Source: Escherichia phage DT57C
DNA length: 64,000 bases
Sequence record: NC_027356.1
Direction: 5' to 3' (one strand)
Shown here: positions 1 through 10,734 of the stretch, one piece after another
How the letters are laid out: every line of letters begins with the position of its first letter
How positions within the stretch are numbered: the first letter of the stretch is position 1
The notes under the pieces: model-generated
Seen by the model: only the letters and a program-made list of their open reading frames with translations
Databases searched by the model: none
What the model was told of the DNA's origin: nothing
Made by a program: the position numbers and the translations under genes

Positions 1-70
1 GCTCACCGCCGGAGGCGAAAATACTTAGTCTGCTAACCGCCACCCCCCGTTACTATTACTCTGCTAACTA

Positions 71-123: not shown

Positions 124-858
124 TTACGCTACTTTTAATTTCTCAATATATTGTTGTGGGCTGCAACTATATTCTGCGCGCTCCTCCTCGGTCATACCTT
201 CCCAACATAATTGCAAGCGGTCGGCTAGGAACTGATAATCATTATCATCTTCAAGAGATTCATCAATAAAGGTTTCGCCGATCAATGTGACGCCTATTGA
301 TAGAATATCGTTAACGGCTTGCGCGTCCAGCGTTTTAAATCCATATGCCGCCGCCGCTGATAATACGCCTTTATGATCATCAATCATCGTGAAATCAGCG
401 TTCGGATATAGCTGTTTGAATAGCTCAAAATAATGGCTTTTATATATAGCGTCTTTACTGTGGTATATTTCGCTAACCTTATCAGCCGTAAAATATTTGT
501 GAAGTGTATCGCGGGAAAATACGCGGATATTGCTATTCCCACGCCCTCGCAGACCTTGTTTGCGCAAATAATAATAATCCGACTTACTCATCAGGCGAGC
601 GGTGCAAATAATGTTTAACGTGTTGGCGTCATTCATGCATTGGCGCATATAGGTAACGAGCGGCAAAAGCGTATCCTGCATTATTAACTCATGTTTGCAC
701 GCTTCATTTTTATACTTATTTAAATCTAAATCGCCTTCAATATCAAAGCAAGGCGCTACACGGTGGGCGGAGTTAATGATCGTGCCGTCCAGATCCCAAA
801 TCATTACGCGGGAAATATGCGGGTAATTGCGGGAAATATTCTTTTTATCTTGATTCAT
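124..858 (-). CDS. dmp: 5'-deoxyribonucleotidase (HAD-superfamily phosphatase), T5 dmp-like
   Basis: 244-aa ORF; N-terminal HAD motif WDLDGTI; context upstream of A1-like gene as in T5 pre-early region. Confidence 0.75.
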   Translation of the reverse strand: MNQDKKNISRNYPHISRVMIWDLDGTIINSAHRVAPCFDIEGDLDLNKYKNEACKHELIMQDTLLPLVTYMRQCMNDANTLNIICTARLMSKSDYYYLRKQGLRGRGNSNIRVFSRDTLHKYFTADKVSEIYHSKDAIYKSHYFELFKQLYPNADFTMIDDHKGVLSAAAAYGFKTLDAQAVNDILSIGVTLIGETFIDESLEDDNDYQFLADRLQLCWEGMTEEERAEYSCSPQQYIEKLKVA

Positions 859-898
859 TTTGTTACGTTCTCCATTAAAGGGATTAAGTTAATTTAAT

Positions 899-921
899 CC
901 AGCCCATACAGTGGGCTGGAG
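899..921 (-). other. Perfect 8-bp stem hairpin (ccagccca tacag tgggctgg) between 133-aa ORF and dmp
   Basis: Inverted repeat read directly; could be attenuator or processing site; lacks strong U-tract. Confidence 0.35.
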
Positions 922-932
922 TATTTCAGTCA

Positions 933-1334
933 TTAAAATACCAGACCATAAGCCAAAGCATCAGCGATAACAGTAATATCCTCGCCAGATACACCGGAAC
1001 GAATACCGGCGCATGTAAATACCTTCGCGCTCATTAACTGATCATCAAGACAAGCGGGGCAAGGCGCGACAACTGCGAAAGCTAAACCAGCTTTTGCGGC
1101 GTCAATAATAGTCGTTTCTTGTTTCATCGTATCAATGTAAACGCCTTTCGCCTTGATGCGGCTAGATAGCTTGCCCGTGGTGTAGGCGAAAGTAGTGATC
1201 TGTAGCGCCTCATTAAATTCGATTAAGTCATCAACAACGTGCCCCGCCTCGACGTGATAGCGCTCACCGGTAGAATAAACTAGGACGATTGCAGACTGCG
1301 CGCGATCGAATGGGATACGGTTGTAAGTAGTCAT
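933..1334 (-). CDS. Pre-early hypothetical protein (possibly A2-like)
   Basis: 133-aa ORF directly downstream of A1-like gene on same strand; assignment to A2 by position/size only. Confidence 0.45.
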   Translation of the reverse strand: MTTYNRIPFDRAQSAIVLVYSTGERYHVEAGHVVDDLIEFNEALQITTFAYTTGKLSSRIKAKGVYIDTMKQETTIIDAAKAGLAFAVVAPCPACLDDQLMSAKVFTCAGIRSGVSGEDITVIADALAYGLVF

Positions 1335-1403
1335 GCGTATAACTCCAATTAATTTAATAAACTTTTATGGCGGCGGTATATTTCGCCCGCCCGCCTGATT
1401 TAT

Positions 1404-3068
1404 TTACGCGAAAAATTTGCCGTTTTTAAAGTCGATTAACGTGCGCTGCCCGTTTGCATATGTAATTACATGCGTTTGCGTCCAGCTTGATGCGCCGACG
1501 TTGTAGCCCATATCGAGGCTGCCCGATACGCCAGCAGTATATACGCCGCCGTAAATGCTGGCGGTATGGGTGTGCCCCGTGTTTAATTTGCCCAACTTTT
1601 TAAATTGCTTCGGATTGCCGCGGCTCCCGTTGATGCCGTTGTGACCGTGTACGCCGCACTCAATGCCTGCAATCTTGAATGATTGATCAGTCGTTAGGAA
1701 TATGGCGTTAAACTCACAGCCTGCAACCTTGCGCAGCGCATAATCCAGCACGTTGAAAGTATCGTCATTTTCTGCAATAGCTCCATAGATCGCGGCGTTG
1801 AGGCGGTGATATAGCTCTGCGTTTGCTGGATCGTCTTTAATGTTAGCGTTGCGATCATCCAGCCAACGGGATAACGCCAGATCGTGGTTTGACTCAACAA
1901 TGATTGTTTGCGAGAAATCGCGCTCCATTGATTCCAATACACGCCCCGTGTCGATAAGATCATCTAAAACCTTATCACGTCCGGCGGCGTACTGTTTTGC
2001 TAGGAATACGCCAGATGCGCGATTGTGGTGGTTGCGTGATGTAAAGTCATGCACATCATGCACGAACTGATATTTAGGTTTAAGAATATCAAGCAAACTA
2101 TTTTCGCCCGCCCATGACGCTTCAGCACACGCCTTATCTAATTTTTCAGCGTGCACGTCGCCATACTGTAAACCTAAAACATGCCCCGATGTTTCATAAC
2201 ATCCGGCGGGAGTGGCGCAAATATTCAAATCATAAAAAACGCCGGTTTCATCCATCGTCTCAAGCTGGCGAACAAAAAATGCCCCGTCCTCGTCAAACTC
2301 GACAATCAGCGCGCCAAAGTTATGTAACGCTTCGGCCTTTTGCCCTGCTTTCTGCTGAATGTAGTTTTTTAGCGTTGCCGCTCCCGTTGAGTACATACGG
2401 CGCACTACTTCACCTTTGAGCGCTGGAACGCTTTCTGCGGTGATTTTAGCTGCTCCAATTGCCAAACCTTCAAGATCAAGCGCTGTTGCAGTCTCAGCGA
2501 ATCCAGAAAGCGGGTAGTCTGCCGTTGGCAAAACATTAATCTCAGCCATGAAAGCAAAGCGGCGACTATTTAAAAACACGTTTTTATTACAGATATATTT
2601 ATCAAAAGCGGAATCATATTTGATCCCGTCCGCACCTTCTCCATTCTGGAATCCTTTTTTGTTATAAATGAACTTGCTAACCAGCAAATCAGCGCCGATA
2701 AATTGGGCGTAATGTTCAAGTGAGGCTAAAAAGTTTTTATGCGGGAACGTGTTGTTCTGGATTGATGTTATAATGAAGCGTTTGCCCTGCTTTACTTCCC
2801 ACTGTTCAACCGTGCTAGAAATAATTCCCGCCGCCTCTGGGCGCTCGTCGTTTTTAACGGCTTTTGATGCTTTCGCCTCTTTTGGTTTCGCTGGTTTGTT
2901 TGCTTCCAGCCAATCACAAATTGCGGTCGAATGTTTTGCCGTATCGTACACCGCTTTTGATATATCGTCGCAGACTTCCAATCTAGTAGCGCGCAGACGT
3001 TTACCGTAAAAATTAAAATCAGCGGCCAGCTTCAGGATAACGGTTTGTTTTTCTGCGGAAATAACCAT
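1404..3068 (-). CDS. A1: A1-like pre-early protein, calcineurin-like metallophosphoesterase
   Basis: 554-aa ORF; phosphoesterase-type motifs (GVHGHNG, NTGHTHTAS); size and position match T5 A1. Confidence 0.7.
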   Translation of the reverse strand: MVISAEKQTVILKLAADFNFYGKRLRATRLEVCDDISKAVYDTAKHSTAICDWLEANKPAKPKEAKASKAVKNDERPEAAGIISSTVEQWEVKQGKRFIITSIQNNTFPHKNFLASLEHYAQFIGADLLVSKFIYNKKGFQNGEGADGIKYDSAFDKYICNKNVFLNSRRFAFMAEINVLPTADYPLSGFAETATALDLEGLAIGAAKITAESVPALKGEVVRRMYSTGAATLKNYIQQKAGQKAEALHNFGALIVEFDEDGAFFVRQLETMDETGVFYDLNICATPAGCYETSGHVLGLQYGDVHAEKLDKACAEASWAGENSLLDILKPKYQFVHDVHDFTSRNHHNRASGVFLAKQYAAGRDKVLDDLIDTGRVLESMERDFSQTIIVESNHDLALSRWLDDRNANIKDDPANAELYHRLNAAIYGAIAENDDTFNVLDYALRKVAGCEFNAIFLTTDQSFKIAGIECGVHGHNGINGSRGNPKQFKKLGKLNTGHTHTASIYGGVYTAGVSGSLDMGYNVGASSWTQTHVITYANGQRTLIDFKNGKFFA

Positions 3069-3165
3069 AATATTAAAACTCCATTAAAGGGATTAAGAAC
3101 GTTTGTTATTGGCAAATATTGCCAAATATAACGCTGCTTATTAACAGCGTTATAATTTGCAATAC

Positions 3166-3411
3166 TTAACTGATCGGCATCAGGCTAGAACTAACACCAC
3201 AAACAACGGCGGTAATAAAACAAAATAAGCCTAAACGCTTTGCTAACTTTGATTTGCGTTTAAAGTAATATGAATCCAGATCATTCTGGAAATAAGCGAA
3301 CAATAATGAGGCCGCTACAATAAATAAACCTAGAATTAACGATTCAGTGGGATAAAAGATCATTTTAATAATTCCAGTTAAAGGGAAATTATAGTGGGGA
3401 ATATTCCCCAC
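3166..3411 (-). CDS. Small membrane protein (2 predicted TM helices)
   Basis: 81-aa ORF, hydrophobic segments; RBS GGAG 8 nt upstream of ATG. Confidence 0.5.
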   Translation of the reverse strand: MGNIPHYNFPLTGIIKMIFYPTESLILGLFIVAASLLFAYFQNDLDSYYFKRKSKLAKRLGLFCFITAVVCGVSSSLMPIS

Positions 3412-3420
3412 TAATTAAAT

Positions 3421-3837
3421 TTATTCACCTGCGGATTGTTTTACTTCATCTGCTACGCCTAGTAATTGCGCTACGGCGTCCAGCGTTTCTAATTTTGCGC
3501 TTTCCAGACTTGCCAGATCGTCGGCGTCTTTGATAATGCCGGAATCAATGGCATGTTTAGCAATAACGCGCACATAATGCGCCTTGCGGATTGAACTACC
3601 GCCGCCAACTTTGCGCGGTTTATCGCTTTTCTGATACGCTTTTGCGCTGGTCAATTTTGAGCGAACAGACACAGGGGAAGTAGCGCCCACTGTTTTGGCG
3701 ATCTCTTTCAGGCCGTCGCTGTTTGCGAACTCTAAACCGTTTTCATTGATTAATTGCTGATACATAGAAACGGCTTTTTGGGTATTTTCTTCATTCCATG
3801 CAAATTTTGCGGATTTTTCGGTTTTAACGTTAGTCAT
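3421..3837 (-). CDS. Hypothetical pre-early protein
   Basis: 138-aa ORF; conserved initiation region tggagtttataccATG shared with ORF 3938-4189. Confidence 0.55.
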   Translation of the reverse strand: MTNVKTEKSAKFAWNEENTQKAVSMYQQLINENGLEFANSDGLKEIAKTVGATSPVSVRSKLTSAKAYQKSDKPRKVGGGSSIRKAHYVRVIAKHAIDSGIIKDADDLASLESAKLETLDAVAQLLGVADEVKQSAGE

Positions 3838-4593: not shown

Positions 4594-5220
4594 TATCGTC
4601 GTCTCCTTATAAGGTTAATAAGTTTGCCGCCGATGGGCTTTAAAATGCACCTGATTTTTAAAGAGCGCGGCGGTAAACTTTCCGCCGTGTAGTTCGTCAT
4701 TGCCGCCCTACGAGATAAATAATAGGGAATACCCAAAAAAGGTGCAACCTTAATTTTGTAAAGAAATGTAAAGAAAGCAAATACCCGCACCGCGTCCGGC
4801 GATCGCCCAAGTTTAAAGGAAACAGGCGCGCGGATACCATAAAACCGAGCTGATTGGCAAGTAATTTTTTCATTTTTATTTGCCTTGCCCTACTTGACAA
4901 AACTTAAAAAGCTCGTGGTGACGATAAACGGGCTATCCCTTTATGATGGGATACCTGAAAAATTTACCGCGTTGTAGGACGTTTTAGGCCGCTTATCTTC
5001 GATTTAACAAATATTTAACAAAAGCAAAATTGAAAAATAGTTTGAGAAGGTATTGACTTTTTAAAATCAAGACTAAACGAGTTATTTTAAAAAATTAATT
5101 AATTGACTTTTATTTGTTGTTGTGTAGTAGAAAGATAGCAGACTAATAATTGCTAGAATGATAATCATGCTGGTGATTGTAACAGACTGAACTATTAGCA
5201 GACTACTGATCCCGGAAAAT

Positions 5221-5260
5221 CTCATTAGCCAACTAACTATCTCATTAGCCAACTAACTAT
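5221..5260. repeat. Direct repeat 2 x 20 bp (ctcattagccaactaactat)
   Basis: Identical tandem copies read directly. Confidence 0.8.
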
Positions 5261-5265
5261 TTCAT

Positions 5266-5450
5266 AAGTTATAATAACTATAAAAATAATCACCGTTAAA
5301 ATAATCACTATAAAAATAATCACCATTAAAATAATAACTATAGAAATAATCACCATTATAATAATCACCATTAAAATAATCACTATAAAAATAATCACCA
5401 TTAAAATAATCACTATAAAAATAATCACCATTATTATAATCACTATAAGA
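5266..5450. repeat. AT-rich tandem repeat block (units ~12/24 bp, aataatcac[ct]a[t]taaaa)
   Basis: ~8 reiterations visible; explains spurious I/V-rich ORF 5237-5443. Confidence 0.8.
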
Positions 5451-5486
5451 AACTATCGGCTTAAGTGAGAACCACTATCATTTAAG

Positions 5487-5568
5487 TTATCCACAACGTT
5501 ATCCACAGCACAAAATGATTTGACACGATAGGCGGCGATATAAAGATTTATCCACAGACTTATCCACA
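5487..5568 (+). promoter_or_regulatory. Cluster of four DnaA boxes (TTATCCACA) in direct orientation
   Basis: Exact 9-mers at 5487, 5499, 5548, 5560; followed by LexA-like half-site ctgtatatttatccag (5579-5594). Confidence 0.6.
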
Positions 5569-5872
5569 GGTTATCCTACTGTATATTTATCCAGGGTAAA
5601 AAGATAGTGTTTACAACTGCAATCAATTTTGAGCGGCCTAAAACGCTTTCTAACGAGCTGATCGCTGTAGGGTAATATTAAAGTAAAGCCTTTACCCGTC
5701 GGCCTAGAGGCTTCGCCGTGTTTTGCTCTTTACTGCACCGCTGCGCGGTTAGCATAAAACTAGGTGTTAGGCAAGAAAAATAAAAAGTAAAGTAAACGTT
5801 GCCCCTAGAAAGAAAATAATTTTACCGGTAACATCGAAAGCGGGTAATAATTAACCTAATGTAAAGTTTTGT

Positions 5873-5902
5873 AAGGCCCGCCATAATCAGCGGCCTTTTT
5901 TG
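5873..5902 (+). terminator. Rho-independent terminator-like hairpin with T6 tract
   Basis: aaggcccgcc...gcggcc stem followed by tttttt. Confidence 0.45.
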
Positions 5903-5965
5903 TTATACTGCCCTTACACCGTTTAAGGACGGTTAAAAATTTCCCGAAAAATTTGGAGGCTTAAA

Positions 5966-6145
5966 ATGGTTATTTTTCGATCTATTCTGGCGGGTATCTT
6001 GGGCGCTATTTTAACTCTATTTGCTACCGCTTACGGTATTCAAGATTCTTATTGCGGTTTAGTAAATACTAAACCTATGGTTATTATTGGCGCGGGTATC
6101 GCTGTTTTTTCTTATTTGCTGGGCTGCATGAATAAAGGAGAATAA
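5966..6145 (+). CDS. Small membrane protein (~59 aa), first gene of small plus-strand operon
   Basis: GGAGG RBS then ATG; hydrophobic translation MVIFRSILAGILGAILTLFATAYG...; not in ORF track (size). Confidence 0.35.
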   Translation: MVIFRSILAGILGAILTLFATAYGIQDSYCGLVNTKPMVIIGAGIAVFSYLLGCMNKGE

Positions 6146-6147
6146 AA

Positions 6148-6360
6148 ATGATCCGCAACGTTTCTCTTGCTCGTTCCAAAGGTTTTAAGCTGGTGGATGT
6201 AAACACGTTCGAGCGTCCTGGTTGTAAAATCGAATATATAGCGCGGAATAAAAACGCTTTCCGCGTTACAGAAAAGAGATTCGATAAACGCGGCAACGTG
6301 ATAGCTGAAACGGTTAAATATTTTGCCACCTTTTACGCGGCCTTTCGTGGGGTATTATGA
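6148..6360 (+). CDS. Hypothetical protein
   Basis: 70-aa ORF; AGGAG RBS; translationally coupled to neighbours. Confidence 0.45.
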   Translation: MIRNVSLARSKGFKLVDVNTFERPGCKIEYIARNKNAFRVTEKRFDKRGNVIAETVKYFATFYAAFRGVL

Positions 6361-6483
6361 AGAGCGTTGTTATTGTTATCCTTGCAATGGTTGGCGGTTT
6401 TACCACCACCTTGTTTAGAAATGATCCTCTTTTGCTAGGGATCTTTATGCTTTTATCTGGTTATCTGATCGGGAGGTTATAAA
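6358..6483 (+). CDS. Small membrane protein (~41 aa)
   Basis: ATG overlaps upstream stop (ATGA); hydrophobic; by-eye call. Confidence 0.25.
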
Positions 6484-6828
6484 ATGGTGATTTATGAAGG
6501 TGATCGCCTTGTTGCTGATTGCCGTCCGGCATTGTTAGCAAACTACTTAAACCAGCTTTCGCCAGTATATAAAGGCGTTATAAATATTTATGAAGGCGGG
6601 GCGCATTATAAGATTAATGCGGTCGTTGCCCGTGAACTAGCGTTTCAATTTTTAACCTTTTCATCTTGCAATATTCAGGTCATGGGTGAGGCGTTAATTG
6701 CAGAAAATGAAGATGATTTTATTAATATCTTTCGCAAGATATGCACCGAGCGCCTGATAATGAAAGGGGCATATATTCAATCCACTGCGGATAGTATTGA
6801 AACGGCTTTTCGAAAGGTGGCACAATGA
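6484..6828 (+). CDS. Hypothetical protein
   Basis: 114-aa ORF; GGAGG RBS 6 nt upstream. Confidence 0.5.
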   Translation: MVIYEGDRLVADCRPALLANYLNQLSPVYKGVINIYEGGAHYKINAVVARELAFQFLTFSSCNIQVMGEALIAENEDDFINIFRKICTERLIMKGAYIQSTADSIETAFRKVAQ

Positions 6829-6952
6829 AGCTATATATTTTCGCGGGTAATGTTGAGGCTGCAAATGATTCCGCTGGTGGCGATAGCGTTCGCCATTATT
6901 GGCAAAATTATATTTACTAGGCGTAATGATCACGGGGCACAACTATCAGGGA

Positions 6953-6979
6953 GTGCCCCTGATTCTCAAATGAGAATGA
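6953..6979 (+). terminator. Hairpin (ggggcac...gtgcccc) at end of small operon
   Basis: 7-bp GC stem read directly; weak U-tract. Confidence 0.3.
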
Positions 6980-7182
6980 TTCTCATTTGACCGCGCCCGC
7001 GATGGTTAGCACACTAATGATTAGGGTGTTACGTGTCGCCTTGTGTGATCGTTAGCGGGCTAACTAATTTTCAAGCCTCCTCCAGATTTGCCCTTGTTTT
7101 AGTATCCCCATCAAAATAAAACGCGTTAGAAAGCGATTCAGGGCGTTTTAGGCCTATATTAGAATTATCCACTGCGTAGGAA

Positions 7183-7202
7183 TACTGTATATTTATACAG
7201 TA
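7183..7202. promoter_or_regulatory. LexA (SOS) box-like palindrome TACTGTATATTTATACAGTA
   Basis: CTGT-N8-ACAG with AT-rich spacer, matches E. coli LexA consensus at nearly all positions. Confidence 0.5.
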
Positions 7203-7211
7203 GAATAACCT

Positions 7212-7292
7212 GGGGATAAGTCGGTGGATAACGCTTCAAAATGGCTAGAATTTTGTCAAGGCAAATCGTGCTGTTGATAAGTCTGTGGATAA
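7212..7292 (-). promoter_or_regulatory. DnaA-box cluster in inverse orientation (TGTGGATAA and variants)
   Basis: Perfect box at 7284-7292, 1-mismatch box at 7224-7232, partial ttatc-core boxes nearby. Confidence 0.5.
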
Positions 7293-7309
7293 CTTAAATA
7301 ACAGTGTTT

Positions 7310-7590
7310 CTCACTTCCGTTTTTAAATGCGAATCATTATCATTTGCATTCCACTTCTTAAATGAGAATCATTTCACTTCTTGAATAGTTCTCATTCCCT
7401 TTCTTAAATGAGAATCATTTCACTTCTTGAATAGTTCTCATTTCACTTCTTGAATAGTTCTCATTCCACTTCTTAAATGAGAATCATTCCACTTCTTAAA
7501 TGAGAATCATTCCACCTCTTAAATGAGAATGATTATCATTCGCATTCCACTTCTTAAATGCGAATGATAATCATTCTCATTCGCATTCCG
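7310..7590. repeat. Tandem array of ~22-bp repeats (cacttctt[a/g]aat[g]agaatcatt), ~10 units, flanked by palindromes
   Basis: Repeats read directly; iteron-like organisation next to DnaA boxes. Confidence 0.8.
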
Positions 7591-7594
7591 GCGA

Positions 7595-7612
7595 GCAGGG
7601 CAATTGCCCTGC
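7595..7612. repeat. Perfect 18-bp palindrome GCAGGGCAATTGCCCTGC
   Basis: Self-complementary sequence read directly. Confidence 0.8.
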
Positions 7613-7617
7613 GCTTA

Positions 7618-8361
7618 TGTGCAAATCCGACAATTGCTCCAAGGGTTACGCGAGGGCATGTATGTGCAAATCCGACCCATTTTTTGGTAGTGTGCAAATC
7701 CGACCCCAAAAATTTATAAATTCGTGAGAGTGACAAATCTGTCTCCCAAAAACTCCAGCAATCACGAACTGCGTTCGAATCCTGTGGGGTATGTGCAAAT
7801 CCGACACGGTTTTTCTAGGATTAAGATGTGCGAATCCGATGAAATTTTTGTGACTTCGATGAGAGGGTGTGTGATTGTATAGGTTTGAGGAGAAGATGAG
7901 AGAGCGAGAAAAATTTTGGGGCTAGAAGTGTATGGGCGCAGGATTGGTGCGGAGCACCTGATTTGCGGGGGTTTTGGGGGATAGTGGAGATAATTTGGGG
8001 AAATTTGAGATAGGTGCAGAAAAAGTAAAATTTTATTAGCTAAAGGGGGCAATATAGCTTGACAATTGAAAATTCTTGTGGCTCTAAAAACTCAGGCAAT
8101 CATGGGCCTTCGGCCCGAAATAATGCTGCTATTTTCAGGAGATTATATGTTCCTAAAAACTTAGGCGTTTGTGCAAATCCGACCATAAATTTCTAGAAAC
8201 ACAATGTGCAAATCCGACAGTAATTCCTGGAAATGTGTTTTCAAAAAATGTCTCCTAGAAATAACCGCCCTCCCTATAACCGCCCTCCCTATAACCGGCC
8301 TAGGTATGTAACGTTGGAGGGAAACTGCCCTAGAATATGTGCAAATCCGATTAATATTTTT
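7618..8361 (+). repeat. Dispersed array of 8 copies of 13-mer TGTGCAAATCCGA(C/T), most followed by N4-6 and a T-run; interleaved CCTAGAA motifs
   Basis: Copies at ~7618, 7663, 7692, 7792, 7827 (variant), 8169, 8206, 8347; a ninth inside CDS at ~10394. Confidence 0.75.
8261..8300. repeat. Direct repeat ataaccgccctccct x2 (+ partial third)
   Basis: Read directly. Confidence 0.7.
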
Positions 8362-9082: not shown

Positions 9083-9809
9083 TCTTTCTAGCCTTTAGAT
9101 AGATTCCTTTAGATGCTAGATAGATATATGTAGCAAGGAATGAAGATGTAGATCCTGTTTCTTCAAGAGTAATAGATCCTTTTGCATAACGCTTAGTTCT
9201 AGGAGCCTGGTTAAGCACAAGTGCAGTGAGACTACCTAATCCTAGCGCATCCATTAAACGTTTGAAGGAGTCCTTTTCATCGTGGATAGCATATAGAATG
9301 TAATCTTCCGCTGTAGTTAGTTCTATATCGCGATGATGTGCCACTGCAATCCGTGCTACTACAGCTCCAATCGTTCTATAAATATCTTCAAACGTAATGC
9401 TAGTTTCAAAAGCTAATGCTGGAAGATGATCGAACTTACATTTCTTAGGCGGAATAAGAAGTTGTTCAGGATAAGCTTCTAGTGCCTGACGAACGTTTGC
9501 TTCTGGGTATGTTGGCAAAGGTTCATCTATAATAACATGTAAGAAATTAGCTCTGTGTCCTTTAGCAGTTGGATCTAAAGACTTCAATACTTTGTTCATA
9601 TCTACGTATGAATACGCTAGATCTGCTTGTGGGGCATTAATATCAAACTTAATCTTCTTACCCTCCCATTTAGCAGGGAACATCTCACAAACAAACATTA
9701 CTGCATGTTTAACCTCTGGCTCCAGCTCTGATAGACATTTGTGATCTGCTGTTACTGCTAGAGCGAGAATATTCTTAAATTTATTAGCTTCTTCAATCAT
9801 ATATCCCAT
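9069..9809 (-). CDS. Hypothetical protein
   Basis: 246-aa ORF, co-oriented, overlapping stop/start with neighbours. Confidence 0.55.
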   Translation of the reverse strand: MGYMIEEANKFKNILALAVTADHKCLSELEPEVKHAVMFVCEMFPAKWEGKKIKFDINAPQADLAYSYVDMNKVLKSLDPTAKGHRANFLHVIIDEPLPTYPEANVRQALEAYPEQLLIPPKKCKFDHLPALAFETSITFEDIYRTIGAVVARIAVAHHRDIELTTAEDYILYAIHDEKDSFKRLMDALGLGSLTALVLNQAPRTKRYAKGSITLEETGSTSSFLATYIYLASKGIYLKARKNVTI

Positions 9810-10138
9810 GCCTGCTGACTATTATCACTAACTTGTGTCTTTTTCTCTCTTCGTGGTTTAAAAGTTCCTGTAGTATTACTTTTACTAGGTTCTAATTTAT
9901 ACCACAGCATTCCTAGCTGGTTAACCATATGAGCAACATTTCTAGGGGTCAATGGCGGTAGGGATTCACAGTTTGATATCTCCCTTAATATATTAAATAG
10001 TTCTGCCTCTTTAGCTTTATTGTTTACTACCACCACGTACTCTAATGTTTCTACCTCAGAATCCTCATCCTTATAGTAGAGGCTAAGAGTAATTAAATTC
10101 TCCCCAGCAGGGGCTATTTTTGTTTTACCAAATATCAT
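9797..10138 (-). CDS. Hypothetical protein
   Basis: 113-aa ORF in operon context. Confidence 0.5.
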   Translation of the reverse strand: MIFGKTKIAPAGENLITLSLYYKDEDSEVETLEYVVVVNNKAKEAELFNILREISNCESLPPLTPRNVAHMVNQLGMLWYKLEPSKSNTTGTFKPRREKKTQVSDNSQQAWDI

Positions 10139-10734
10139 TAACTACCTCTCTTATCTTCGTTAAGAGCAGCTCCTAGTGCTTCCATAATTGCATCTTCTAT
10201 ACTTCCATGCTTACTAGGATTGCTTAAGTGAATAGTATATGAGTTCCTAGAAACTCCAGAGTCCACAGGTGCTGCGCTTTTCCTATCAGACTCAAAAGCT
10301 TCTTGGGTATGTTTCAACTGTACAGAAGGCCCATAGTCTTCCCCAACTCGATAGGACTGATTAGACGACAGCGTACCACCGCAGGGAACATTGTGCAAAT
10401 CCGATGGATTATTTAATAGTGCAATACCACCTCTTGGCCACGAGTCACTAACATGAGTACTAGGACGGTTAACCTCAGTCTTCACGAGTTTATAACCAGC
10501 ATCTATTAATGCATTAATAAGGTTATCAGCTGGAATGCGAGCCTTGCCAAAAATCTCACGAGCGTTGTTGAGCCTACCTTCAAAACCTTTACATGCTCTA
10601 ATATTAGTGTGTGCAAAGGTTAGCTTCATAGATTTGAATTGTACAGTAGCAGTTAAATCTTTAAAGCTATAATCCCACGTATTCAGTTCATGATCTGGTA
10701 CTACTTGAATAGATTGCTGTGCATATAAAGTCAT
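10138..10734 (-). CDS. Hypothetical protein
   Basis: 198-aa ORF; contains one copy of the 13-mer motif. Confidence 0.55.
   Translation of the reverse strand: MTLYAQQSIQVVPDHELNTWDYSFKDLTATVQFKSMKLTFAHTNIRACKGFEGRLNNAREIFGKARIPADNLINALIDAGYKLVKTEVNRPSTHVSDSWPRGGIALLNNPSDLHNVPCGGTLSSNQSYRVGEDYGPSVQLKHTQEAFESDRKSAAPVDSGVSRNSYTIHLSNPSKHGSIEDAIMEALGAALNEDKRGS

Follow-up and report, generated by a model that had tools for sequence, protein, structure and literature searches.

Inverted DnaA-box arms with adjoining LexA-type sites in the first-step-transfer DNA of the T5-like phage DT57C

In the 64,000-nt stretch of Escherichia phage DT57C analyzed here (NC_027356.1; the window), two modules of repeats, DnaA boxes and LexA-like sites face each other across a small operon, which raises the question of what this layout is for. 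The initial annotation had proposed either an iteron-plus-DnaA-box origin or a host-controlled checkpoint of DNA injection; our analysis supports the identification as an injection stop and speaks against the origin. Every element that it listed was found, with coordinates that agree with those given there exactly or to within a few bases, and all are far beyond chance expectation. The window is 99.9% identical to the corresponding DNA of Escherichia phage DT571/2 (KM979355), with the same coordinates, and belongs to a T5-like phage. Both modules (5463-7587) are located in the left terminal repeat (8081 bp in DT57C), i.e., in the first-step-transfer DNA, together with dmp, A1, and A2 (124-3837, minus strand). 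We consider the modules to be conserved non-coding elements of the first-step DNA of the T5 family, with arms that are candidate host-protein arrays, and we assign this reading a probability of about 0.5.

The core of the layout is a 132-nt inverted repeat (5463-5596 and 7183-7316), the arms of which are 77% complementary and 1590 nt apart (blastn E = 3e-24). Each arm comprises a LexA-type palindrome at its inner end, two DnaA-type boxes separated by 3 bp, a spacer of ~52 bp, and two further boxes. The four boxes of the left arm (plus strand) are all perfect copies of TTATCCACA (5487-5495, 5499-5507, 5548-5556, and 5560-5568), and its spacer has a conserved TTGACA/GTCAA core. The right arm (minus strand) contains three boxes with one mismatch each (7211-7219, 7223-7231, and 7272-7280) and a perfect one (7284-7292). 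Perfect TTATCCACA occurs five times in the window, always within the two modules. Measured from the LexA-type 20-mer, the boxes lie at +28, +40, +89, and +101 in both arms; the same four offsets were observed in most of the 26 arms from 13 phages, and arms with a missing box keep the remaining offsets.

The left arm is the homolog of T5 Repeat Region 2 (IRC-spacer-IRD; 77% identity over 135 nt). The right arm is the homolog of T5 IRD'-spacer-IRC'; over 160 nt it is 95% identical to a T5 segment that lies within the annotated "injection stop signal (iss)." Together with the adjoining repeats, the right arm corresponds to the core of that signal. The arms are named IRC/IRD and IRD'/IRC' in the T5 annotation (Wang 2005, AY587007; Heusterspreute 1987 as cited), and Davison (bioRxiv 2020) compared 25 T5-like phages, DT57C among them, and counted eight DnaA boxes. 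The same two sources show the layout of repeats and DnaA boxes at the T5 stop that the initial annotation had mentioned. They also account for the mirror arrangement around a coding cargo that it could not place: the arrangement is real, annotated in T5, and discussed at length by Davison (2020). The mirror modules are thus the previously described inverted repeats of the T5 family and, as stated, add nothing new. What goes beyond the descriptions found is the LexA reading of "palindrome D," the inversion of the cargo as a block and, as a weak lead, the Fur-like right repeats. The presence of a near-perfect LexA-type site beside the DnaA boxes of each arm, throughout the family, may be new. 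In the literature searched, we found no link of LexA, SOS, or Fur to T5; an earlier mention in Davison 2015 (PMC4743489), Heusterspreute 1987, or Wang 2005 is possible.

The left site, TACTGTATATTTATCCAGGG (5577-5596), had been described as half-like; the site is present, but it is a full CTG-N10-CAG 20-mer. The right site, TACTGTATATTTATACAGTA (7183-7202), is a near-consensus operator that differs from the LexA consensus TACTGTATATATATACAGTA in one central base. These two are the only matches to the LexA-type pattern in the 64-kb window, where 0.25 were expected. With a heterology index trained on a set of E. coli LexA operators, values of 1.04 for the right site and 4.08 for the left one were obtained, compared with a training median of 5.4 and an average of 9.5 for the best site in randomized 64-kb windows; both sites score within the range of the genuine operators in that set. 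The index of the right-arm site is ≤1.5 in 13/13 phages, and its variants are restricted to a change from ACAG to CCAG and to flips of the center, both of which also occur in genuine E. coli operators. The operator is the best-conserved element: its spacing to the DnaA boxes is the same in the 13 phages, and phages of Escherichia, Salmonella, Klebsiella, Pectobacterium, Erwinia, Proteus, Vibrio, and Aeromonas all retain its pattern. The LexA box was rightly flagged, and the case for it is stronger than it was originally put.

A classical LexA-regulated promoter was rejected, since a sigma-70 scan was at background level (12 sites versus 13.5 expected), with no convincing promoter overlapping either LexA-type box, and since, by alignment to T5, the promoters likely to drive the cargo are separated from a box by at least 200 nt. 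As read from the sequence and the alignment, neither spacer has a -10 element at the proper distance from its conserved TTGACA. The degradation of host DNA by A1 makes release of the DNA by LexA cleavage an attractive idea. However, the T5-like phage ESCO40 was propagated on DH5alpha, which is recA1, and RecA-driven cleavage of LexA is therefore unlikely to be a required release step.

The architecture of the arms proved to be conserved across the family in the comparison with T5 and its relatives that the initial annotation had suggested (13 phages, plus distant relatives at the level of motifs). The distant set consisted of five Demerecviridae with A1 proteins 31 to 65% identical; the four most distant of them (Proteus, two Vibrio, and Aeromonas phages) are absent among the blastn matches listed for the arm. 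These five genomes contain 10 LexA-type sites (about 0.07 expected) and 18 perfect TTATCCACA boxes (about 0.95 expected), and the two motifs co-occur within 120 nt in 8 cases, as against 0 in 300 shuffles. The LexA-type site recurs beside perfect DnaA boxes in the Proteus, Vibrio, Aeromonas, and Erwinia relatives, with the exact host cores (CTGTAT..ATACAG and TTATCCACA) kept while the surrounding sequence diverges. This pattern is easier to reconcile with host proteins that stay constant than with a phage protein that co-evolves. In IMG/VR, the composite motif was found only on contigs of 96 to 123 kb, the same size as T5-like genomes.

The mirror symmetry claimed for the modules holds for the arms with their LexA-type and DnaA sites; the notion that the flanking arrays are mirror images as well was rejected because their repeat units, a 15-nt AT-rich one on the left and a 23-nt one on the right, are unrelated. 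Outside the left arm, TRF detected 2.3 copies of a 20-nt direct repeat (ATCTCATTAGCCAACTAACT; 5219-5265) and 11.5 copies of the AT-rich 15-nt repeat (ATAATCACCATTAAA; 5271-5443); an open reading frame labeled "repeat completion protein" (5237-5431, minus strand) is simply the translation of the latter array. This array is lineage specific and restricted to the left side: 4 of the 13 phages have it (the window phage, Gostya9, chee24, and Spc35), and it is missing from T5, NBEco002, FFH1, Stitch, Sw2, KookSpook, Eos, Sugarland, and DU_PP_V.

On the right, 23-nt and 35-nt repeats and palindromes (7321-7587) correspond to T5 DRC/DRE and palE-I. TRF resolved them into 8.2 copies of period 23 (7347-7534) and 2.1 copies of 35 nt (7508-7582), so that the iteron-like array reported initially exists, with a period of 23 rather than 22. 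The unit reads ...CTTAAATG(A/C)GAAT(C/G)ATT..., and its single strand folds into a row of hairpins (-63 kcal/mol for 7300-7625 folded as single-stranded DNA; z = -11.5); the region also holds 25-nt perfect inverted arms. The AATG(A/C)GAAT palindromes beside the arm are kept even in Aeromonas, Proteus, and Vibrio D124 phages. A perfect 12-1-12 palindrome, TCAAATGAGAATGATTCTCATTTGA (6966-6990), follows the operon at the position of the T5 "palC / putative terminator" and shares the motif AATGAGAAT with the right-hand repeats. Beyond these repeats, the palindrome CAGGGCAATTGCCCTG followed by GCGC/TT (7590-7615) is the homolog of the major single-strand interruption of T5 (7.9% nick), with the nick site at 7614/7615 according to a by-eye alignment with T5 L001 5937/5938. 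Repeats of TGTGCAAATCCGA(C) (7615-8360, plus strand) are the counterpart of T5 "direct repeat D"; they extend across the end of the terminal repeat, lie in the same non-coding block but outside the modules, and are kept in all relatives examined. A search of Rfam for structured RNA gave sub-threshold chance matches only.

Some copies of the right array match the Fur-box core. There are two 16/19 matches to Fur GATAATGATAATCATTATC, and five sites with ≤2 mismatches to the 7-1-7 motif TGATAATnATTATCA in 12.8 kb versus 0.23 expected, these copies being repeats of one unit, with patchy conservation. Fur boxes were not retained as a third conserved host site: they are enriched in enterobacterial phages, but the general unit is the AATG(A/C)GAAT palindrome, and the Vibrio phages gave no Fur-like matches. 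The resemblance of the right 23-nt repeats to Fur boxes is a weak lead.

The DNA between the arms is a variable operon of pre-early host-takeover genes (5966-6920, plus strand). Its leader (5632-5965, plus strand) contains, by blastn, a remnant of the DNA upstream of T5 gene 011 that a deletion fused to the T5 terminator/T5P5 promoter region, and it includes an extended -10 (TGTTATACT) near 5899-5908. The plus-strand genes encode a hydrophobic T5.013-like protein of 59 amino acids (5966-6145), a T5.014 homolog of 70 (6148-6360), a hydrophobic protein of 41 (6357-6482), a T5.015 homolog of 114 (6484-6828), and ORF017, of 31 (6825-6920). The tight packing noted initially is evident; the description as mostly membrane proteins does not hold, as 184 of the ~315 codons belong to the non-hydrophobic T5.014 and T5.015 homologs. 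The proteins match only PHROGs of unknown or host-takeover function, and expression of cargo gene 011, 013, or 015 by itself is toxic. A published T5 mutant with a deletion from hegG to 017 is viable and forms small plaques. According to the T5 annotation, this interval includes the left arm and the cargo; both are therefore dispensable in T5, and a two-arm complex is not essential.

In Sugarland, IME260, Eos, and DU_PP_V, the cargo is inverted as a block that is collinear from end to end (tblastx and tblastn), and the flanking A2 and T5.007 are unchanged in orientation. No invertase or recombinase was found among the cargo or neighboring genes. Homologous recombination between the arms would produce the cargo in both orientations and would thereby explain the mirror layout without both copies working in the stop.

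For the checkpoint itself, the identification stands on the match of the right arm to the T5 iss, and the candidate mechanism is that proposed by Davison (2020), with membrane-bound DnaA at both arms as the injection stop. The same source reports that transfer into FhuA proteoliposomes runs to completion, which implies a cell factor, and that the T5 shear point (~9618) is just to the right of the right arm (9332-9462). We envisage that the arms are arrays of candidate sites for host DnaA and, as newly suggested here, LexA, which could load on the naked entering DNA with no need for phage protein synthesis. The right-arm complex would assemble just within the inner membrane, directly upstream of the transfer pause, and most likely would tether or stall the DNA until it is released by phage A1/A2. 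The dimeric DNA-binding protein A2 has candidate sites in the adjoining AATG(A/C)GAAT palindromes. The left arm would be an auxiliary, dispensable paralog, which DnaA oligomers may connect to the right arm. Against a host-protein stop, it is not obvious how a protein on DNA already inside the cell halts further entry, and the left arm lies 1.6 to 4.6 kb from the stop point; against the DnaA reading, 3/4 boxes of the right arm depart from the consensus for DnaA in its stringent form.

Several other explanations need to be weighed. The stop could be due to DNA structure alone, with hairpins or cruciforms jamming the tail or the envelope channel and the DnaA and LexA matches being incidental. The strong single-strand fold and the 25-nt inverted arms agree with this, as does the TT/AA flip at the center of the LexA-type palindrome among close relatives, a change typical of hairpin-prone palindromes, and "secondary structures" still figure among the options named in recent papers. 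Yet the DNA travels as a duplex, the completed transfer into proteoliposomes (Davison 2020) points to a cell factor, and a purely structural element would not need the exact host cores that distant relatives keep amid diverged sequence; we regard this explanation as unlikely. The motifs might instead be read by phage proteins (an A2 dimer, or A1/A2) for the restart of the second step or for cutting first-step DNA, along the lines of Davison's idea of A1 as a "restriction enzyme." A2 is a dimeric DNA-binding protein that is required for second-step transfer and binds membrane-associated A1; palindromes suit dimeric binders, and those of the AATG(A/C)GAAT type reach as far as the Aeromonas, Proteus, and Vibrio D124 phages. 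But no phage protein synthesis is needed for the pause, which means that A2 cannot be required for stopping, and A2 is only 34 to 51% identical in the five distant phages, in which the LexA and DnaA cores are at the host consensus. This account suits the 23-nt repeats better than the arms, and we consider it quite unlikely.

Alternatively, the arms could be transcriptional boundaries or regulatory elements at which DnaA and LexA, as roadblocks or repressors, insulate the toxic cargo from the A2-A1-dmp operon and the non-coding stop region, with a mirror symmetry that works for either cargo orientation. LexA is a repressor, complexes at DnaA boxes can act as orientation-dependent blocks to RNA polymerase (asnC/dnaA), and the arms bracket the cargo, three genes of which are toxic alone, with the LexA-type boxes innermost in both orientations. 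The distance of these boxes from the mapped or likely cargo promoters and the lack of a convincing overlapping promoter count against it, as do the terminator-like palindromes that already follow the operon and the dependence of pre-early shut-off on A1, not on known host repressors; in addition, Davison (2020) mentions some T5-like phages that retain the right arm only. We judge a boundary function to be improbable. A replication origin, of the iteron type or oriC-like with DnaA boxes and an AT-rich unwinding element, is suggested by the four perfect boxes located 40 nt from the 15-nt x 11.5 array on the left and by the 23-nt direct repeats on the right. The AT-rich array, however, is absent from most relatives (4/13 have it), no Rep-like gene is present beside the repeats, and the T5 interval holding the left module is deletable. 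T5 origins map elsewhere, near the genome center, and the genes for replication do not enter until the second step, as stated by Davison (2020). We thus consider an origin highly improbable.

Returning to the arms as host-protein arrays, their LexA-type sites raise the tentative proposal, to which we give a low likelihood, that host LexA might be an unrecognized partner of DnaA at the T5-family stop signal. The stop would then be a composite landing pad for abundant host DNA-binding proteins, in which a LexA operator abuts an array of DnaA boxes and Fur-like sites possibly follow. Within seconds, these proteins would seize the DNA as it enters and would retain it until A1/A2 act, with the pad duplicated in mirror image upstream. 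If true, this would put a pause that has lacked an explanation for decades on a concrete molecular footing that can be tested; papers from 2023 to 2026 still call the T5 stop at about 8% and its restart unknown. LexA is easily removed genetically (lexA(Def) sulA), so the host-factor model can be tested without touching the essential dnaA, and since the left arm is expendable in T5, the right arm is the target for experiments.

Comparison with known systems shows both shared and distinct features. The LexA-type sites share their palindrome with gammaproteobacterial LexA operators (CTGT-N8-ACAG, AT-rich center). Known SOS boxes adjoin promoters, whereas the sites here have no recognizable promoter, are paired with DnaA boxes, and occur in a strictly lytic phage, for which SOS control of lysogeny is irrelevant. 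As in E. coli oriC, datA, and DARS, 9-mers of the same orientation, with helical-repeat-like spacing, combine consensus and weaker boxes, and the halves of oriC hold arrays that face each other, as the two arms do. Unlike in those clusters, a distance of 1.6 to 4.6 kb separates the arrays, which are thus not adjacent, a conserved unwinding element is lacking, and the candidate DnaA sites are carried by a virulent phage with its own replication proteins. Iteron plasmid origins likewise have direct repeats of ~22 to 23 nt beside DnaA boxes, but they possess a cognate Rep gene, which is lacking here, and the repeats here are largely palindromic hairpin units.

In the plastid flip-flop and in the phage Mu G and P1 C segments, as in this locus, a gene block between inverted repeats (~130 bp here) occurs in either orientation, and the genes outside it do not change theirs; here, the two orientations are those of different relatives. 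In contrast to the Mu G and P1 C segments, there is no invertase gene, and the orientations differ between genera; with arms that are ~77% identical, flipping is probably rare and homologous, not programmed. The closest counterpart is the T5 iss/Repeat Region 2, with homologous arms in the same position of the terminal repeat, eight DnaA-type boxes in pairs 3 bp apart around a ~52-bp spacer, and the same downstream elements (DRC/DRE palindromes, nick site, and DRD repeats). The T5 cargo is longer, with 3178 nt between the boxes versus 1586 in the window phage, which lost genes 011 and 012; T5 is without the long AT-rich left tandem array and has lost one left box, whereas the window phage has four perfect ones.

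The region from 5000 to 7800 is 99.9% identical to that of Escherichia phage DT571/2 (KM979355; Tequintavirus, Demerecviridae), with unchanged coordinates. It contains a 132-nt inverted repeat, detected with a repeat finder, whose arms (5463-5594 and 7185-7316, 77% complementary) enclose a block of genes, referred to here as the cargo. Arms and cargo lie within the left terminal repeat, that is, in the first-step-transfer (FST) DNA. To their left are dmp (124-858), A1 (1404-3068) and A2 (3421-3837), all on the minus strand, and to their right is a long non-coding block. The right arm shares 95% identity with T5 bases within the segment annotated as 'injection stop signal (iss)' (9140-10149 in T5 record AY543070), and the left arm has its match in the part of T5 with inverted repeats C and D. 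Of the two interpretations offered by the initial annotation, an injection checkpoint thus agrees with the T5 iss identity, whereas an iteron-plus-DnaA-box replication origin was rejected: a Rep gene is missing, the AT-rich array is not conserved, and the T5 origins have been mapped elsewhere. Several short GenBank entries under the names 'Listeria phage' or 'Campylobacter phage' (OR847365, OR848616 and others) share 92-94% identity with the T5-like region and are probably contaminant or mislabelled contigs.

All repeats, DnaA boxes and LexA-type sites listed in the initial annotation were recovered with Tandem Repeats Finder, the repeat finder and motif scans, which confirms its observation. 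The 64-kb window contains five perfect TTATCCACA DnaA boxes, all inside the two modules: four in the left module (5487, 5499, 5548 and 5560, plus strand) and one in the right (7284, minus strand), where copies with one mismatch occur at 7211, 7223 and 7272. The LexA-type pattern occurs in the window only at 5577 and 7183 (0.25 expected). On a heterology index trained on 24 E. coli operators, the right site scored 1.04 and the left site 4.08 (training median, 5.4); the best score per randomised window averaged 9.5, with a minimum of 3.6 (n = 100 windows). Given its score, the left site, described as 'half-like', is more than was claimed, namely, a complete operator-like CTG-N10-CAG sequence. 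In both palindromes (5577-5596 and 7183-7202), the two central bases flip between TT and AA, between close relatives as well as between arms, a pattern that either hairpin-mediated template switching or gene conversion from one inverted arm to the other would be expected to produce.

Both arms were aligned from 13 phages (26 arms), namely, DT571/2, Gostya9, T5, chee24, Spc35, NBEco002, FFH1, Stitch, Sw2, KookSpook, Eos, Klebsiella phage Sugarland and Pectobacterium phage DU_PP_V. The alignment to T5 and relatives proposed in the initial annotation revealed that the arms are conserved in all of them, with the near-invariant string CTGTATAwwTATACAGTAG-GATAAC-CTGTGGATAAGTCTGTGGATAA, but that the operon block varies in length and is inverted in some. 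Most of the 26 arms carry DnaA-type boxes at +28, +40, +89 and +101 relative to the first base of the LexA-type 20-mer, and arms short of a box keep the offsets of the others unchanged. The heterology index of the right-arm LexA-type site is at most 1.5 in 13/13 phages; the left-arm site is weaker (3.7-7.2) in Tequintavirus and Epseptimavirus and approaches the consensus in Eos, Sugarland and DU_PP_V. In IMG/VR, the composite LexA/DnaA motif was found only in contigs of 96-123 kb, which is the size of T5-like genomes.

More distant relatives were reached by tblastn with A1, namely, phages of Erwinia (65% identity), Proteus (41%), Vibrio (34% and 31%) and Aeromonas (33%); the Proteus, both Vibrio and the Aeromonas phages were absent among the blastn matches listed for the arm. 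In all five, LexA-type palindromes (e.g., CACTGTATATTTATACAGTG and TACTGTATATCCATACAGCG) adjoin perfect TTATCCACA boxes, and these site pairs border a gene block upstream of A2. The five loci contain 10 LexA-type sites (~0.07 expected) and 18 perfect TTATCCACA boxes (~0.95 expected), with eight co-occurrences within 120 nt as compared with none in 300 shuffles. The cores stay at the host consensus while their surroundings have diverged, which argues that these candidate sites are recognised by constant host proteins rather than by a co-evolving phage protein.

Within the cargo, the open reading frames (ORFs) at 6148-6360 (70 aa) and 6484-6828 (114 aa) are homologs of T5.014 and T5.015 (93% and 89% identity, respectively), and the products of 5966-6145 and 6357-6482 are small and hydrophobic. 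T5.015 was reported to be a nuclease that requires Ung, the uracil-DNA glycosylase of the host (PMC8201957). The locus tag T5.015 of Mahata 2021 corresponds to the 114-aa protein in AY543070; in RefSeq and PHROG (phrog_4227), it is the 70-aa protein (T5.014 in AY543070, ORF015 in AY587007) that is called 'endonuclease nicking abasic sites generated by host Ung', so that one of these assignments is probably shifted by a gene. T5 genes 011 and 012 are missing from DT571/2 by a deletion (window 5800-5970 versus 2627-3664 of T5) that brings the 011 terminator/T5P5 promoter next to sequence lying directly upstream of the 011 promoter; for its translation start, the first cargo ORF (5966) uses the ribosome-binding site and initiation codon of what is gene 012 in T5.

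The two LexA-type boxes lie between 1586 nt (DT571/2) and 4620 nt (DU_PP_V) apart. By tblastx, the T5 cargo is collinear end to end with those of Sugarland, Eos and DU_PP_V, every match being inverted, and collinear in unchanged orientation with those of Stitch and chee24. In accordance, the T5 map reads left arm, 011 to 017 (plus strand), right arm, and that of DU_PP_V left arm, 017, 015, 011 (minus strand), right arm. The cargo of IME260 has the Sugarland-type orientation and that of Erwinia KEY the T5-type. Since A2 and T5.007, outside the arms, keep a constant orientation whichever way the cargo (window 5596-7183) lies, the simplest reading is that the arms recombined with each other at least once, flipping the cargo by homologous recombination.

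The arrays flanking the arms are mutually unrelated, so that the mirror symmetry proposed initially applies to the arms and not to the arrays. Tandem Repeats Finder identified units of 20 nt (2.3 copies, 5219-5265) and 15 nt (11.5 copies, 5271-5443) on the left, and of 23 nt (8.2 copies, 7347-7534; the array had been noted, but with a period of 22) and 35 nt (2.1 copies, 7508-7582) on the right. Among the 13 phages, the left AT-rich 15-mer array is present only in DT571/2, Gostya9, chee24 and, as a 31-mer, Spc35. The GenBank coding sequence 'repeat completion protein' (5237-5431, minus strand; MIIIMVIIFIVIIL...) is the translated 15-nt repeat and almost certainly does not represent a gene. Nearly all relatives have the right-hand 23/35-nt units, followed by the nick-site palindrome and then by TGTGCAAATCCGA repeats. 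The 7.9% nick of T5, its major single-strand interruption (GCGC|TT after palindrome CAGGGCAATTGCCCTG), has its homolog at 7614/7615, 3 bases past the right edge of the region initially delimited. At least six copies of TGTGCAAATCCGA(C), the counterpart of T5 direct repeat D, occur at 7615-8360, spanning the expected terminal-repeat end (~8081); every relative examined has kept them, Sugarland, Eos and DU_PP_V included, and our guess is a role in terminase or end recognition.

Many right-hand units carry AATGAGAATCATT or AATGATAATCATT, which is the E. coli Fur-box core (AATGAKAATCATT). With at most one mismatch, the window contains 13 core matches (0.3 expected), 10 of them at 6975-7575. Two extend to 16/19 matches to the Fur 19-mer (7525-7543 and 7560-7578). 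A perfect 7-1-7 motif (TGATAATCATTATCA) lies at 233-247 inside dmp, near the first-entering genome end. Fur 7-1-7-like sites are enriched in enterobacterial phages with patchy conservation, and none were found in the two Vibrio phages. Because these repeat copies cannot be counted as independent, and because what is generally conserved in them is an AATG(A/C)GAAT palindrome, Fur recognition of these candidate sites is only a lead; the palindromes are plausible candidate sites for the dimeric DNA-binding protein A2.

Sequence comparison establishes the T5 iss identity, the content and geometry of the motifs, their family-wide conservation and the cargo inversion. As to mechanism, we infer that host DnaA and LexA would load onto the right arm during its entry and help retain the DNA at the inner membrane pending the action of A1/A2. 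The left arm is presumably an auxiliary paralog. The T5 shear point (~9618) is just right of the right arm (Davison, 10.1101/866236). A T5 mutant with a hegG-to-017 deletion is viable with small plaques (2026 preprint); according to the T5 annotation, this interval includes the left arm and the whole cargo. The degenerate DnaA boxes of the right arm are a weak point of this proposed mechanism.

That DNA structure alone causes the stop appears unlikely: palindromes are present, and 7300-7625 as a single strand folds into hairpins in a row (z = -11.5), but the LexA/DnaA cores are conserved at the motif level and a cell factor is needed; transfer into FhuA proteoliposomes goes to completion (10.1101/866236). 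We give equally little credence to the arms being transcription-boundary elements for the cargo, which would suit their symmetry about a flip-prone block, since their sites are distant from promoters. Binding of the motifs by phage proteins is the least probable of these alternatives; it suits the 23-nt repeats and fits the arms less well.

Taken together, the modules are the already known T5 iss architecture rediscovered. The AY587007 annotation of T5 lists inverted repeats C/C' and D/D', direct repeats B, C and D, palindromes C to J and the 7.9% nick. Davison ('Phage T5 two-step injection', 10.1101/866236) compared 25 T5-like phages, including DT57C, whose LTR is 'almost identical' to that of DT571/2, and described 131-bp units (IRC-spacer-IRD and IRD'-spacer-IRC') with eight paired DnaA boxes, 3 bp separating the two members of a pair, and a spacer that is always 52 bp long. 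In that proposal, restated as such in later papers, the DNA is stopped by membrane-bound DnaA with both arms participating. LexA is mentioned neither there nor in these later papers, although earlier mention in Heusterspreute 1987, Wang 2005 or Davison 2015 is possible; a literature search linking LexA, SOS or Fur with T5 returned nothing relevant. Relative to this published architecture, the putative family-wide LexA-type operator and the inversion of the cargo block may be new, and the finding would gain interest if LexA proves active in the pause.
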